From Cladosporium halotolerans (taxonomy: Eukaryota): 64,000 nucleotides of DNA. Below are positions 4,632 through 12,874 of the stretch, piece by piece. Numbering within the stretch: position 1 is the first letter of the stretch; every line of letters begins with the position of its first letter. The notes below the pieces were generated by a model. The model had not been told where the DNA came from. It did no database searches and saw nothing but the letters and a program-made list of their open reading frames with translations. Both the position numbers and the translations under genes were made by a program. Where the stretch lies: NCBI RefSeq assembly GCF_011745625.1, contig NW_027191479.1, forward strand, positions 1 to 64,000. The letters run 5' to 3'.

Positions 4632-5845
4632 ATGCTTTCTCTCGTTAGATACACCATCGCATCACTGTGCGCGACGGCAGCTGCGCAGCAATATGCCGGA
4701 GACACCATTTCCGGGTCTCTCCCATCGGCAGAAGGCGCTGAGATCGCCTACTTCCGTGTCTCAGATCCGTCTGGGGCCAATGATCGCCTGACACTGCTTA
4801 ACTATTACTCGCTCGACAGCAATGGACAGCGATTGCAGGAGTCTGCTGTTGAGCGAGCGGTGATCATGAATTTCGGCCAGAACAGGAACGCTGCTGACTA
4901 TGAGGGATTTGTGAGTTCATGCAAGTCATGCCGGGGCAAGAAGAATTGACTGACCGCATTTGACAGGTCATCGAAGCTCTGAAGAAAGTCACTTCGGGCG
5001 CCAGCGTCGACAATACCGCCGTCATGGTCCCCATGTGGGCCAACGATCAGGACAAAGGCGTCGCTTACCCTTACGACGACCAGACGCAAACATCAACATC
5101 GAACGCCATGGTCTGGTACGACACCGAGTGGGCTTACGGCCGCAACAACATGTATCCTTCTTCGTCAACGAACATCTCGACGTTCTACGTCCTCGACGAA
5201 ATCGTGCAATACTACATGGACGAGAGCACATTCCCTAACCTCAAGGAAGTCGTCATCGCCGGCCACTCGATGGGCTCTCAGTTGGTGCAAAGATACGCGG
5301 CGCTCACCTCGGTACAGTCCGGGCGTATTCCGGTCACGTTCTGGCCTGCTGACCCGAACTCGCTCGTCTGGCTCAGTGCCGACCATCCCGTTCAGACATC
5401 GAACTGCCCGACTTTCGATGATTACCCTGAAGGCTTCAGCAACTACGCGCAAGACAACCAGCAGTACGGCCAGACGCTTGTGAGCCAAGGTGTTGAGGCT
5501 GTGCGGCAGAACTTCCAGAACAAGCAGGTCGCTTGGCTACGATCGACCCAGGACCAGGGAGACCACACGACGGATGGTTGCGGTGCTTACGCTTCTGGCA
5601 ACAACCGCGACGAGCGGTTTTTGAACTTCATCAAAGCGTTCCCGCCGCAGTGCGAGGATCCCGCGGGCGGGAACTGCGACACCGTGGACTACATCGATGC
5701 AACGCACGATGCGCAAGCGGCCTTTGGCTCCGAGGCAGGGTTGGCGCGTTTATTCAGTGACAACTTTGATGGCAAGGGTGTTCGTGCGCATGACTTTGGC
5801 ACGCGGCGACAGAATGACGATGACCCGTACCCTAGCTCAGCGTAA
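4632..5845 (+). CDS. Secreted alpha/beta-hydrolase-fold protein (~385 aa, 2 exons)
   Basis: Signal-peptide-like start MLSLVRYTIASLCATAAAQQ. Intron 4911-4966 (GTGAGT..CTGAC..CAG). Nucleophile elbow VVIAGHSMGSQ, with a candidate catalytic His in ATHD near the C-terminus. Confidence 0.85.
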
Positions 5846-6427: not shown

Positions 6428-6510
6428 GTCAACAATTATATCACACCATGCTTGCATTGCGCATTGCGCTACGCGCAATGCAAGCACGATGTGTGAATAT
6501 TCGTGTTGGC
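6428..6510. repeat. Imperfect inverted repeat / long hairpin
   Basis: Perfect 14-bp arms TGCTTGCATTGCGC (6449-6462) and GCGCAATGCAAGCA (6473-6486), extended by TCACAC/GTGTGA and GTCAACA/TGTTGGC pairing. Confidence 0.75.
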
Positions 6511-7139: not shown

Positions 7140-7148
7140 AAAAAAAAA
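7140..7148 (-). terminator. Pol III oligo-T terminator of U6
   Basis: Nine consecutive T on the minus strand immediately after the U6 3' sequence. Confidence 0.85.
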
Positions 7149-7237
7149 CTTGTAGCACTCTTTACTTGCATGTGTCATCCTTAGTGCAGGGGCCATGCTA
7201 ATCTTCTCTGTATTGTTTCCTAATGCTGGGTTAGTGT

Positions 7238-7246
7238 GGTTCGAAC
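7238..7246 (-). promoter_or_regulatory. Pol III B-box within U6 intron 2
   Basis: GTTCGAACC on the minus strand matches the B-box consensus GTTCRAnnC and lies inside the transcribed U6 gene. Confidence 0.7.
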
Positions 7247-7370
7247 GATGTTGTTGGAGGTGTAGCTTACAAATTGACCAAATGTCCTGGGAAGCTGTTA
7301 GAGAAATTCCACTGTACTAAGGGACTTTTCCAGCACTTACCCGAAGGACACTAGGTCTGGTGCAGCACGC

Positions 7371-7378: not shown

Positions 7379-9020
7379 GCTTGGGCTGCAAGTTCGCCCT
7401 CGGGCCGAAGCAAGCCGGTTCTTGTCTCCTGAGGCTCCCAGGCCGCCGTTCCTCAGCGGAGCATGGTCTTCTTGCTCTCAGAAGCTAACCGGCCAGATAT
7501 CGAGTTATCCCAACCTTGAGTCCGTCCACCTTCCAACTCTTACGCTCTGAACGATCTTCGGCCGTCGCGAATTGACTATCAGTGCCATGCCGATCTTCGC
7601 TCACCTCTGACTGCCGCGGACGGTCGGCATTTGCTTCGTGATCGATTGAGAAATCGTCGCAATCGATCAGACGTTCATAAACTCAGCCAGTAGCCGATAA
7701 CAAGCAATCAATGTATTGTTCGAGCGTTCGAGAACCCATGGTGAGAAACTTGATAAATATTGCAAAGGATCAAAGGAAAACCTCAGGTGATTCCTGAATG
7801 ATGGAAGAGGGGTGCGAATTTCGTCAAGTGGGGGGATTCGAACGTGGGGAGGGGAGTTCTTCCGACGGCTCTGCACTGTGGATCCTCCGCCTCAACCCTT
7901 CCATGTACTCGTGTACTTCACACTAGCGAACGAACAGGCGTCAGAGCTCAGCCCGTCGTCTATACGACGACATCGCCTTGTTGACTTGCCTATTCGCGGA
8001 AATGATCGATGGGTTTGCGAATGCACTACGGCCTCACACAGTGTAGCCTACCGTTGGCCAGCAGCCCAGGCCAGGCAATCGCAGACATCCCCAGCAACGA
8101 TGCAAGCCATCCGTTGCAGAAGGTGTATAGCACGTGTGATTGATAGAATCATGACGGTGATCACGTTGTGAGGGCTTGTCGTGCTTCAGAGAAAGTGCTC
8201 TCCCACATGCGCACGTTCAATACTCGGAACGGAGAACGCAGAGGATCTGTGGGTAACCATTGACCAGTGGCATCCTCGTACGACCTGAAAGCTCGCATTC
8301 TATCAGTATCAATAGCTTGCATTGCATCGAGATCGGTCCTGTACTCTGTGGATCTCACGGGAGTCTTGCTTCGAATCTGTGCTCGTTTGCACGCTCCGCC
8401 CCACTTCGGAAGCTTGCTTCACTTAGCAAACATAAGCAAAAGCATGTTGCCGAGAAGGCAAACGCACCGGCGAACGGAGAGAAAAGGAATTGGTCACGTG
8501 CAATGAACCAGATATCGAGTGTGGCTCTGGTGCGCTACAAGTCCGCAAGCACGAGGTAGTTGTCACACATGAAAGGGCACCTTGCCGTTCTTAGCAACAG
8601 AATCTCAAAGCTTCAAATGACGCCTGGATTCCGTATGCGACCTGTTCGTATACCACGCTGCATGCCGTTCAAGCTCCGTGCACCGTTTGAGCTCAGAAGT
8701 TTTGCATCGAAGCAAGAATGATGGAAGTCCTGGTAAATTATTGGATTTCAAAGTGCTTTCGTGGGGAGCCAAACCGATCGTGAGTCTTTGAATGCTCCAC
8801 CGGGAAGGGATTTATTGGCCGTCTTAGATCCCAATACAGGAATGAGGGGGGAATTCCGTTTGAAAGCGTCTGCGGCGTCGTGCATGTCATATGCTGCGAG
8901 CTATGCATTGTTTGCTGGCTCTCTTCATGGTAGGAGCGGTGTGAGCATTGGAGAGCCTATATAGAACGATTGAGACTTAGGAACTTTCTCTCTTTCACAA
9001 CAACCATTTCAGTTTCTACA

Positions 9021-9776
9021 ATGGAATCTGAAATAATTGACACGCTTCCGGCGCTCAGAGCCTTCCTCAATGACATTCCTGTTGCGACCGATCCACCCAC
9101 CCTCTACGTGGACCTTGAAGGGAACAATCTATCCCGCCATGGCACGCTTTCTCTAGTCACTATCATGGTTGAGCCTCGCCACACAATGCATCTAATCGAC
9201 GTGACGACGCTCAAGAAAGATGCCTTCACCACCGCTGATGAAGGCAGCAACACGTTGCAGCAGATCCTGGAGTCGAGCAGCATCACGAAGGTCTTCTTCG
9301 ATATCCGCAGGGATTCCGATGCTCTGTTTCATCTCTTCGGAGTCCGTGTCGCAGGCATTCAGGACTTGCAGCTCATGGAGATCGCGACCAGGAGCTCTGC
9401 CAAGCGCTTTCTCTCCGGCTTGGCCAAGTGTGTTGAGAAAGACGCTCGACTCGCTTTCTCAGAGAAGGTCCAGTGGCAGGCGACGAAGAACAAGGGACAC
9501 CGGCTTTTCGACCCAGCTTCAGGCGGCAGCTATGCAGTCTTTGACGAGCGCCCGTTGTCGCCGGAGATGTTGGCTTACTGTGTGCAAGACGTGATCCACG
9601 TGCCAGTTCTGCTTGACCAGTACAAAGCGAAACTCAGTGATGCGTGGATGGTCAAAGTGGAGCAAGAAACGGCCGCACGAATTGCCCTCTCGCAGAGCGC
9701 TTCCTTTGACCCCAAAGGCCAACGCATGGTGGAGGCGCCTGCTGGTTGGGAGCATTGGCGTCCAGGTGGAGCATGA
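9021..9776 (+). CDS. 3'-5' exonuclease, DEDDy/RNase D-like (EXD1-like), 251 aa, single exon
   Basis: ExoI LYVDLEG, ExoII KVFFDIRRDSDAL, IQDLQLME and ExoIII RPLSPEMLAYCVQDV. First ATG at 9021. Confidence 0.9.
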   Translation: MESEIIDTLPALRAFLNDIPVATDPPTLYVDLEGNNLSRHGTLSLVTIMVEPRHTMHLIDVTTLKKDAFTTADEGSNTLQQILESSSITKVFFDIRRDSDALFHLFGVRVAGIQDLQLMEIATRSSAKRFLSGLAKCVEKDARLAFSEKVQWQATKNKGHRLFDPASGGSYAVFDERPLSPEMLAYCVQDVIHVPVLLDQYKAKLSDAWMVKVEQETAARIALSQSASFDPKGQRMVEAPAGWEHWRPGGA

Positions 9777-9970: not shown

Positions 9971-12874
9971 CTACCAAATCCTCTTAGCAGCCATCATATA
10001 CCTCCCAACCCCATCCAACCCATCCGACTCGCCACCCGCCTTCTCAGCCTTAGCCTTCGCACGCGCCTCTTTCTCCCTCAACTCCCTCAAAGCATCCGGA
10101 TCGTCATCGTAGATCCACCGCCTCTTCTCCTCACTGACCTCCACGACCCCCCACCCACCGACTCTCTTGCCCTTAGCATCAGTCGACTGCATCTCGCGCT
10201 CCTTCATGCCCTCGTACCGGCTGCGCGAAAAAGAGAGGAGGATCATGCCGAGGACGAGCTTGAAGGCTAGCAGAATGAGAAAGAGAACGAGGAAGAAGAT
10301 GACCATGGTCGCGAGAGCGATGAAGTCGTCCATGGACCATGTGAAGGAGCTGCCGGACTCCATGCCCGCGCCGAAGGTGGAGCGGCCGAGAGCGCGTCGG
10401 AAGATGTGATCGACGTGCTGGAGGGCTTTTATGGTTGCAGGGCTGGTCGAGGCGGTCTCGTTGTCGAGAGCCACTGCTGTCGCTGCTGCAGGAACGGGCA
10501 TAGGCACGTGCGTGGCGAGAAACATGTGATACGTTTGCATGCTGGCTCTGATGAAAAGGCAGCTGAGAGGGATGACCGGGAGACCCAGGCGTTTGGTCAG
10601 ATTCTGGTCCGCGAAAGCGTGAGAGTAGTAGTCCTTCGCGAGGACGTCGAGGAATCGGCCGTAGATCGCCGGCTTTACGTTGTTGAATTTGTTGATGTAG
10701 GCGTGTTTAAGCCAGTCGACGATCATCTCGCTACCCAGAACGATCAGGAAGGGACCAAGCACTTCGCCCGTCCATCTAGGCATGAGAGTGAAAGCTTTGG
10801 GGATGATGCTGGTTTTCAGCGGGATTCCCGTGGCGTTGGCACCCAGCCCTGAGGTCGCCGTGCCACTCAGGGGGGAGCTGCCGAGCGAGATAGTAAGCCC
10901 GCCAACCTCGACGATATTGCGTAGCGCAATTATCATCAGCATGAGCCAGAGTTGGAAGCGCTCAACGACATCCGCGCAAGTGAGCTGGAACAGATTCTCC
11001 TTCTCAAACTTCTTGAACACCGTGCCTTTGATTTCCACAAACTGGTTGCTCATGAGCAGCGTCAACAGAGCATTAGAGTATGAGTTGACTGCGACATTCA
11101 GGGTGACGACCTGATAAAAGAGGGTTGTGGCGTGAATAAGGTTGTACGCCAGAGCGAGAATGAACATCCAGAGCGGGCGGATGACTTTGCTCCGTCCATC
11201 CGGTTTGCGCTCAAGTGTCTCTTTCGAGAATAAGCACTCGAGGACGTCCTGGCCAAGAGCCGAGAAAAGCCGGTCGAAAACCTCCAAAACGTTGTATATT
11301 ACGTATAGTTTGATCGCTGCTTGCCCGCGGATGGAATGATACATGCGACTTGCATCAAACCACATCAGCATAGTACTGCTGATCAATATTAGAGCGCCTA
11401 TCGGGTACGGTCAGCCATAATGTTCTGAGAAAATCACAGTAGAGAGCCAGGGCGATGCCTGGGCACTCGGATATGGAGGAAGAAATGACACAATTTTACC
11501 TTGTAGTAAGTCCGCCTTATGATTAGGCATGAGAGCAGACGGGGTCGACTTCGTCCTACGGTGTCGAAAACCAGTCCTTTTTTTCGACCTCTCTTTCGCC
11601 GCTATCGACGCCGTGTCTAGCTTCAGCATGGGTTTCGAAGGATTGTCCAACGCTTCGCTCGCCTCAGAAGGCCGCCGCGAGCTTGGCTGCTCGGCTCCGG
11701 ATGGGCGTCTCGATTCTGACGATGAGCCTCTGCGACGTCGCTGCCACATGCGACCAATACCGTCATACACGAATGCGCCCAGATCTCGCACTTCTTTCAC
11801 GGCATTCCGGGTCCACCATTGGATTAGAATGCCGATCGCTTTGAGAAAACGAAGGGGCAAAATGGTGAAAGTGAAGAGCCAGGAGTCCAGACAAGCCAGC
11901 GCGCCGAATATGAGAACCTGTTCGAGCTGAGGCGGTAGGCGGAGGAAATTCAGAAGCCTTTCAAACTTGACCTTGGATGACTCGTAGGGGAAGTCATTGG
12001 TCGCTGATCGATGGATGTACAAGGGCGAAGGCCGATCTGACGATAGTTCCAATTGAAGATAAGTCGGTAGCGAAAGAGGCGGTATGGGGATCATAGGAGG
12101 CATTGGTGAAGGCTGCGACATGTCCGGTGTTCGTGATGGTTTCAGAGTTGCGCTCGAGGTGTCACGATGGGCGTTATCGAGTTGCAGAGGCGCAGGCTTG
12201 GGAGGCCGGGATGATGAAGACTTTCGCGATATCACAGGCGTCGAAGTTGAACGCATTGCCTTGCCTGGCCGGGGATTCACGACGGCGCCTGGTGTGGCAT
12301 TGACACTTCGGAAGCTCATCGTATTTCCCGGGGCGGCCTCATCAGAAGAGAATATCGCGAGACCATTCAAACCGCCTTTGCGCCCTTCTCGCGGATGCTC
12401 TTCGACGGTGTCCAATTGATTTTGCGCATTCAGACCATTAGGCAAGGGCGGGATGTCGCTGTCATGAGAATCCGCTGGTCGCATAGGTATTGATCCGGGA
12501 GATGAAGTGAGCTCTTGAATTTGTTTCGGGGACAGCTTCAGCATCTTGGGAGTTTCTCCATTCATTGTTCGCGGCGAAGCAGGCGTGCTGCTCTTCCTTG
12601 AGCCCTCGTGATCACCCTCCCCTCTTGACCTTCCTCCAGTAGAAGCCGGTGGCCGTTCAAAATGTCCATTCCCATTGACACGACCATTTATCTTTCCAGT
12701 GGCATCGCCATCCTCAATAACCTCCTCATAGCTCGGGAACGGCGCAGGTCCCTCATCTCCATGTTCACCGATCGGGGTCAAGGCAGGAGTCTCAAGCTGA
12801 CCGTTGCTCGTCGCAGGAGGGAATCCGTTCGCGTGACCGTTCGCATCACCGTTCGTAACATGAGGACTGCTCAT
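9971..12874 (-). CDS. EMP65: TAPT1/Emp65 (DUF747) ER membrane protein, ~933 aa, 2 exons
   Basis: Exons 12874-11500 and 11397-9971 (intron GTAAAA..GCTGAC..TAG). Conserved DASRMYHSIRGQAAIKLYVIYNVLEV, NQFVEIKGTVFKKFEKENLFQLTCADVVERFQL and DWLKHAYINKFN. Confidence 0.92.

Follow-up and report, generated by a model that had tools for sequence, protein, structure and literature searches.

Introduction

Split U6 genes are textbook evidence for the insertion of introns by reverse splicing at the spliceosome’s active site. The intron in the U6 gene of S. pombe goes back to Tani and Ohshima (1989, as cited in PMC5855946), and the B block of this gene lies within the intron (Frendewey 1990, as cited in section 6 of the same paper). 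Fungal U6 genes with several introns have been treated by Tani and Ohshima (1991) and by Canzler, Stadler and Hertel (2016), both taken here from section 14 of PMC5855946, which gives up to four canonical introns per gene, with insertion sites that cluster near the catalytic core and just upstream of ACAGA. A further point of reference is the S. cerevisiae gene SNR6, which has a TATA box together with A and B blocks, and where TFIIIC binds and places TFIIIB (PMC5855946, section 6). An initial annotation of the DNA described below had pointed out that introns in fungal U6 genes are as such a known phenomenon, in agreement with the earlier literature cited in section 14.

Anatomy of the U6 locus

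The window, by which we mean the whole 64-kb stretch of DNA that was analysed, contains U6 (RF00026) as the sole Rfam family. The match extends from 7246 to 7144 on the minus strand and scores 64.2 bits (gathering score 44), compared with 88.1 and 86.8 bits for two intronless relatives from metagenomes (L018 and L055). The Rfam alignment is reliable from exon 3 onward only. The 5’ stem of the model is pushed into intron 2, where it contains two non-standard pairs, and the posterior probabilities are low over the first ~27 nt. The remark in the initial annotation that standard ncRNA scans would report the last exon alone was right, because Rfam hits only 7246-7144, misses the short exons and forces the 5’ stem into intron 2.

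All parts of the gene are located on the minus strand. The TATA box (TTTATATAG, 7378-7370) lies at -29 to -21 from the presumed start and is followed by a first exon of 9 nt (7349-7341, beginning at this presumed start), which comprises the stem’s 5’ half together with the UUCG loop and a single G. Intron 1 (7340-7287, 54 nt) splits the 5’ hairpin and reads GTAAGT...CTAAC...CAG, with the branch-point motif TCTAAC at 7302-7297. The second exon of 16 nt (7286-7271) supplies the 3’ half of the stem and the single-stranded stretch. Intron 2 (7270-7220, 51 nt, GTAAGC...CTAAC...TAG, branch-point motif ACTAAC at 7235-7230) ends 8 nt before the ACAGAGA box, which is intact and located at 7211-7205 in exon 3 (7219-7140, 80 nt). 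Exon 3 further contains the intact AGC triad region (7201-7193), the 3’ part and the T9 Pol III terminator (7148-7140). Both introns are of mRNA type, with GT...AG borders, a fungal 5’ splice-site hexamer and CTAAC near the 3’ end, and the branch A lies 11 and 13 nt from the 3’ end of introns 1 and 2, respectively. The similarity between the two introns is at shuffle level, as 145 of 500 shuffles reach the observed alignment score. The initial annotation agrees with this anatomy base for base in the coordinates and lengths of exons and introns, and its two canonical GT..CTAAC..YAG introns, their lack of relationship in sequence and the 8-nt distance to ACAGAGA were all found as it had described them. 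Both flanking elements of fungal Pol III U6 genes, a TATA box ~30 nt upstream and a T-run terminator, are present.

Elsewhere in the window we noticed a long near-perfect inverted repeat at 6438-6501, which gives weak microRNA precursor matches on both strands (best 30.2 bits, gathering score 90) and is probably just a palindrome. Of the neighbouring open frames, 8934-9776 (plus strand) encodes a 3’-5’ exonuclease domain (PF01612, E 1.8e-12) and 9971-11410 (minus strand) a domain of the DUF747 eukaryotic membrane protein type (PF05346, E 3e-130), the latter gene pointing to Ascomycota, while the open frame 4964-5845 has no Pfam match. A scan of the window for bacterial promoters and terminators, which is irrelevant here, found nothing.

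Effect of intron removal

The spliced form was scored with a sequence profile built from 57 intronless fungal U6 genes. With both introns removed, the window gene reaches 119.1 bits and covers profile positions 1-104, while the unspliced sequence yields 85.6 bits over positions 26-104 and a separate piece of 10.9 bits for exon 2. Removal of intron 2 alone gives 114.9 bits (positions 5-104), and removal of intron 1 alone leaves the score at 85.6 bits (positions 26-104) with a separate piece of 14.1 bits. Taking out both introns therefore adds 33.5 bits, and the result is colinear with intronless U6 from end to end. When the nearer CAG (7227) is used as the acceptor of intron 2, the score is 109.0 bits over positions 1-104, compared with 119.1 bits for the TAG at 7220, which is for this reason the better acceptor. 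The comparison of spliced and unspliced forms, which the initial annotation had proposed as a check, thus comes out in favour of the spliced form.

The three exons also match other fungal U6 genes directly. The joined short exons give an exact 30-nt match to the intact U6 5’ ends of other fungi, and a 40-nt core of exon 3 is identical in at least 117 metagenome U6 loci. Among the metagenome matches listed, the 25-mer made of exon 1 and exon 2 is found uninterrupted in 4 of 117 U6 loci, and exon 2 joined to the first 20 nt of exon 3 is likewise uninterrupted in 4 of 117, which exceeds what chance would give.

At the 5’ end, the spliced RNA is predicted to fold into a GUCC/UUCG/GGAC hairpin, ((((....)))), with -5.9 kcal/mol, and the conserved single-stranded stretch comes next. 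The 5’ stem-loop expected of a U6 RNA is obtained solely once exons 1 and 2 are joined. The initial annotation had stated that this hairpin forms only after splicing. This holds insofar as the first 30 nt of the unspliced sequence fold without the GUCC/UUCG/GGAC hairpin, but when the precursor is folded at full length, these 5’ bases are predicted to pair across intron 1 with AGGAC. The statement therefore needs softening, because the stem can already close in the precursor, where according to the folding model it may hold both splice sites of intron 1 together before splicing takes place.

Other fungal U6 loci

For comparison, metagenome contigs were scanned with the 40-nt exon 3 core, which yielded at least 117 loci, a set that is to be regarded as a sample. 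The working set comprised 119 rows, i.e. the 117 loci among the matches listed, the window gene and a second match in L013. Five rows were left out before clustering as aberrant or truncated (L013_1, L038, L105, L021 and L054), and the remaining 114 rows fell into 91 dereplicated groups, of which 28 have at least one intron, with 33 introns in total among the matches listed. Six of these 33 (in L001, L031, L058, L089, L114 and L116) were added by hand, because the spliced aligner misses introns behind very short first exons, and the donors of the introns that the aligner called in L030, L044 and L099 are weak, so that these introns could be spurious. In L045 a putative first intron was not counted, as it is without an AG acceptor. 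A separate metagenome search for the end of exon 2, a gap of 30-60 nt and the start of exon 3 had 0 matches, because it demanded the exact exon 3 start of the window.

Among the matches listed, 13 of the 33 introns are located at reference positions 23-26, the site of intron 2 in the window. In six genes of the same set, the window gene and five relatives (L031, L074, L058, L089 and L116), the hairpin is interrupted by an intron at the loop or beside it, and intron 1 is homologous to the first introns of these five in place and in conserved blocks. Relatives are hence interrupted at the same two places as the window gene, which answers the call of the initial annotation to map the intron positions against other fungal U6 genes. 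Together with the canonical splice signals and the profile scores, this bears out its central claim of a U6 gene split by two introns of the spliceosomal type. We infer that the locus is very probably a real and functional U6 gene whose transcript would be spliced twice.

Several metagenome loci have peculiarities of their own. The 3’ part of U6 in L058 contains introns of 57 and 58 nt around a 4-nt exon, TGCA, which makes three introns in all, and this reading restores exact colinearity with the intronless L018. In L045, which has an intron at the site of window intron 2, an insert resembling an intron lies further upstream; its donor is good and CTAAC is present, but an AG acceptor is missing, and a 7-nt piece, TCAATTT, is left between the two. 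L040 is an intronless U6 of the L089/L116 type, with no TATA box within 140 nt upstream and with a B-box core 15 nt past the terminator, which fits either a TATA-less promoter or a retro-copy of spliced U6. In L078 and L113 a look-alike of a tRNA gene 3’ end, with a T-arm-like B box, lies ~170 nt upstream of U6, so that tRNA and U6 genes may be neighbours at these loci.

The distance of the TATA box in the window fits many metagenome U6 loci, where it is located 18-45 nt upstream. A large group of U6 loci, unlike the window with its TATA box at -30, carries, ~70-80 nt upstream of the hairpin, a TATA-like box with pyrimidine-rich sequence after it (L002, L006, L016, L026, L029, L036, L048, L049, L052, L073, L080, L092, L094, L109, L112 and others), which may reflect another arrangement of the promoter or the presence of a 5’ leader.

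Promoter-box motifs within the introns

According to PMC12498455 (Background), the consensus of the internal Pol III promoter reads TRGYNNARNNG at the A box and GGTTCRANYCY at the B box. Intron 1 contains the motif TAGTACAGTGG at 7319-7309 (minus strand, +31 to +41), which fits the A consensus at every specified position. Intron 2 contains CGTTCGAACCA at 7247-7237 (minus strand, +103 to +113), which agrees with the B consensus in 9 of 11 positions; the mismatches affect positions 1 and 11 only, the near-invariant positions are kept, and the core GTTCGAACC (7246-7238) is an exact sense-strand match to GTTCRANYC. This core is nearly palindromic, and its antisense strand also reads 9 of 11, but fails at the near-invariant position 10. 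Both boxes are on the sense strand and 73 nt apart from start to start; the linker of TFIIIC is said to span A-B spacings below 74 bp without bending of the DNA (PMC12409998). On both strands of the 64-kb window there are 2 matches to TRGYNNAGTGG (expected 1.41), one of them in intron 1, and 8 matches to GTTCRANYC (expected 9.42), one of them in intron 2. One A and one B motif in sense and in the correct order, inside two introns of ~50 nt, would be a rare accident, although the search for these motifs was made post hoc. ARAGORN found no tRNA in the window, and the intronic boxes are therefore not part of a tRNA gene. A second, A-like block, TGGTCAATTTG, is exonic (7280-7270, minus strand, +70 to +80) and has one mismatch to the A consensus. 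Although remote from the TATA box, it precedes the B box by 33 nt and could take the role of the A box in place of the intronic motif.

At 7834-7843 on the minus strand, i.e. on the same strand as U6 and 485 nt upstream of its start, the window has a perfect B-box core that includes the flank (GTTCGAATCC). It is the sole match to GTTCGAANCC in the window (expected 0.60; at least one match in 43 of 100 shuffles). ARAGORN predicts no tRNA at this site and the flanks form no T arm, so it could be a stray TFIIIC site or chance.

The 33 introns among the matches listed contain the strict A box TRGYNNARYGG 7 times in sense and 0 times in antisense orientation (dinucleotide shuffles: mean 0.03, maximum 1), and the B core GTTCRANYC 6 times in sense and 0 times in antisense orientation (mean 0.19, maximum 2), where both motifs were sought after the fact, having been chosen after seeing the window, and the window itself is among the counted cases. 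The counts are not independent, as the seven A boxes come from six homologous hairpin introns plus L100, and the six B cores fall into three groups, namely the window (position 25), L031, L074 and L058 (positions 74-76), and L088 and L107 (position 23, past the branch point). Among the matches listed, an A box follows the 5’ splice site at a distance of 20-29 nt in all 6 hairpin-splitting introns. More telling than the counts is the pattern of conservation. When these six introns are aligned, conservation is confined to the donor hexamer, the A-box block, the branch point and the terminal AG, and the A box of the window differs from that of its relatives (TGGCCTAGTGG) solely at positions not specified in the consensus. 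In the same way, the introns with a B box in L031, L074 and L058 have only the splice signals and the box in common. For window intron 2 we found no clear box-carrying homologue among the matches listed, L043 being the nearest with a near-match.

Genes whose introns lack a B core often have such a core just past the terminator (24 of 83 dereplicated genes in sense and 4 of 83 in antisense orientation, among the matches listed), and for 11 of the 24 its distance from the T run is 9-20 nt. A downstream core is absent from all 6 genes that have an intronic one, among the matches listed; at such counts a mutual exclusion of the two locations is only suggestive. In 53 of the 83 dereplicated genes among the matches listed there is no strict B core either in an intron or within 200 nt downstream, and therefore either the pattern misses many real promoters or many genes need none. 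A full-text search of a limited literature collection gave no report of an A box in a fungal U6 intron.

A probable promoter carried by introns

Since the boxes are conserved in related introns and S. pombe offers a precedent, an intron-borne internal promoter appears to be the most likely explanation of these findings. We regard the locus as a likely case of a working ascomycete U6 gene that is spliced twice and has its internal Pol III promoter in the introns; the use of the intronic boxes as promoter, taken by itself, is probable. TFIIIC would be bound at both intronic boxes, the B box of intron 2 and the A box of intron 1, and would position TFIIIB at the TATA box (-29). Pol III would then transcribe a precursor of ~205 nt from the TATA-directed start to the U run encoded by T9, from which the spliceosome would excise the 54- and 51-nt introns by intron definition, across exons of 9 and 16 nt, and the mature U6 of ~100 nt would thereby gain its 5’ UUCG hairpin. 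The internal half of this promoter, of the tRNA type, would lie outside the mature RNA, with A box and B box confined to introns 1 and 2, respectively. Introns that carry promoter boxes would be useful to the gene, which would explain their retention; they could not be lost without loss of the promoter, and the B box would have been hosted by different introns in different relatives.

The gene might instead be a working, twice-spliced U6 whose intronic motifs are unused, being leftovers of a tRNA-like sequence that arrived with an intron, and whose transcription is driven by the TATA box, perhaps helped by the exonic A-like block and an unrecognised element. The block at +70 to +80 is indeed only one mismatch away from the A consensus and ideally spaced to the B box, and a longer stretch resembling a tRNA arm around the A box of L089 and L116 hints at a tRNA-derived insert. 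The many genes without a strict B core (53 of 83 among the matches listed) point in the same direction, as does the statement in section 6 of PMC5855946 that recognisable TATA, A and B elements may or may not be present in fungal U6 promoters. If the A box were at +70, however, it would be far from the TATA box, and leftovers are difficult to reconcile with boxes that are the sole intron-internal blocks kept in diverged relatives, with substitutions at free consensus positions only. The strand specificity of the motifs (7 and 6 sense matches, 0 and 0 antisense, among the matches listed) argues likewise for use, and that no gene combines an intronic B core with a downstream one (0 of 6 among the matches listed) adds a point that is weak alone. 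We therefore consider unused boxes unlikely.

Doubt about the gene itself takes two forms. The locus could be a decaying or redundant copy that is not productively spliced, with the cell supplied by another, perhaps intronless, U6; section 14 of PMC5855946 holds that expression and splicing of intron-bearing fungal U6 genes still have to be validated by experiment and that there may be paralogs. Decay is at odds with the state of the locus, in which the TATA box, T9, both donors, the CTAAC branch points, the acceptors, ACAGAGA and the AGC region are all intact, the 40-nt exon 3 core is identical to that of at least 117 fungal U6 loci, the spliced form reaches 119.1 bits and relatives have kept the same split layout, so that we judge a redundant copy quite improbable. 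It is more improbable by far that there are no introns at all, i.e. that the Rfam match 7246-7144 is all there is of U6, its 5’ stem being degenerate, and that the resemblance of the upstream exons to U6 is fortuitous. The full Rfam model of 105 positions can be aligned to this stretch with 64.2 bits, above the threshold, but its stem contains non-standard pairs and has low posterior probabilities over the first ~27 nt, no TATA box is present ~30 nt upstream of 7246, and intronless relatives score 88.1 and 86.8 bits. The short exons, on the other hand, give an exact 30-nt match to other fungal 5’ ends and add 33.5 bits on the profile. The Rfam match was rejected as the entire gene on account of its poor stem, the missing TATA box and the short exons that restore the profile match.

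Returning to the intron-borne promoter, we tentatively extend it to one group of ascomycetes, a proposal to which we give somewhat less than an even chance. The whole type 2 internal promoter may have been relocated from mature U6 to introns, with the hairpin intron as dedicated A-box carrier and a second intron bringing the B box at a varying site; the introns would have been locked in by their promoter function, and the B box would have switched its host intron. If this is true, the spliceosome has to excise the promoter of its own catalytic RNA from every transcript. The initial annotation had further proposed a potential feedback loop and intron gain, possibly by reverse splicing, which for the window U6 are speculation; the same ideas are put forward in PMC5855946.

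If the introns carry A and B boxes that TFIIIC needs, loss of an intron would silence the U6 supply. This would be a simple selective reason for intron retention and would couple the amount of U6 produced to the capacities of Pol III and of splicing alike. Should RNA evidence agree, the gene would also show that exons as short as 9 and 16 nt can be spliced in a Pol III transcript that lacks a cap. There are practical aspects as well. Standard RNA scans mis-annotate such genes, as seen from the 5’ stem that Rfam put inside an intron. Fungal U6 promoters are moreover borrowed for guide-RNA expression, for which intron sequences may be needed besides the upstream DNA; in practice, a U6 intron is already taken along together with the promoter.

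Comparison with known systems

Fungal U6 genes with mRNA-type introns are a known class, and the window gene is a member of it. Like the U6 gene of S. pombe as described in PMC5855946, it is a Pol III gene with a TATA box, an intronic B block and introns of the mRNA type, for which removal by the spliceosome is established in S. pombe and expected here. In contrast to S. pombe, where a single intron is located by the catalytic AGC triad, the window gene has two, of which the first lies in the 5’ hairpin and the second ends 8 nt before ACAGAGA, its A box also seems to be intronic, and the exons are as short as 9 and 16 nt. With the multi-intron fungal U6 genes of the same source it shares the position of intron 2 in the hot spot upstream of ACAGA; it differs in that the hairpin introns of its group have a conserved A-box block in common. 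SNR6, according to the same source, likewise combines a TATA box with A and B boxes, the role of TFIIIC at the window gene being presumed by analogy. SNR6 is, however, intronless, with the A block in the mature RNA and the B block past the terminator, ~200 bp from the A block, whereas the boxes of the window gene are intragenic, would be spliced out and are 73 nt apart.

Further likenesses are found among the metagenome relatives L031, L074 and L058, where the hairpin is likewise split by an A-box intron, a B box is present in a second intron, and exon 2 and the exon 3 start are identical to those of the window (exact 36-mer). Their B-box intron is located in the 3’ part of the gene (reference positions 74-76), whereas that of the window precedes ACAGAGA, the distance from A to B box is 111-113 nt as opposed to 73 nt in the window, and L058 has a third intron. 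From S. pombe U6 the window gene departs in three respects, namely two introns at other sites, exons of 9 and 16 nt, and putative A and B boxes in separate introns. The window gene most likely extends the case of S. pombe U6, in which the B box is carried by an intron.
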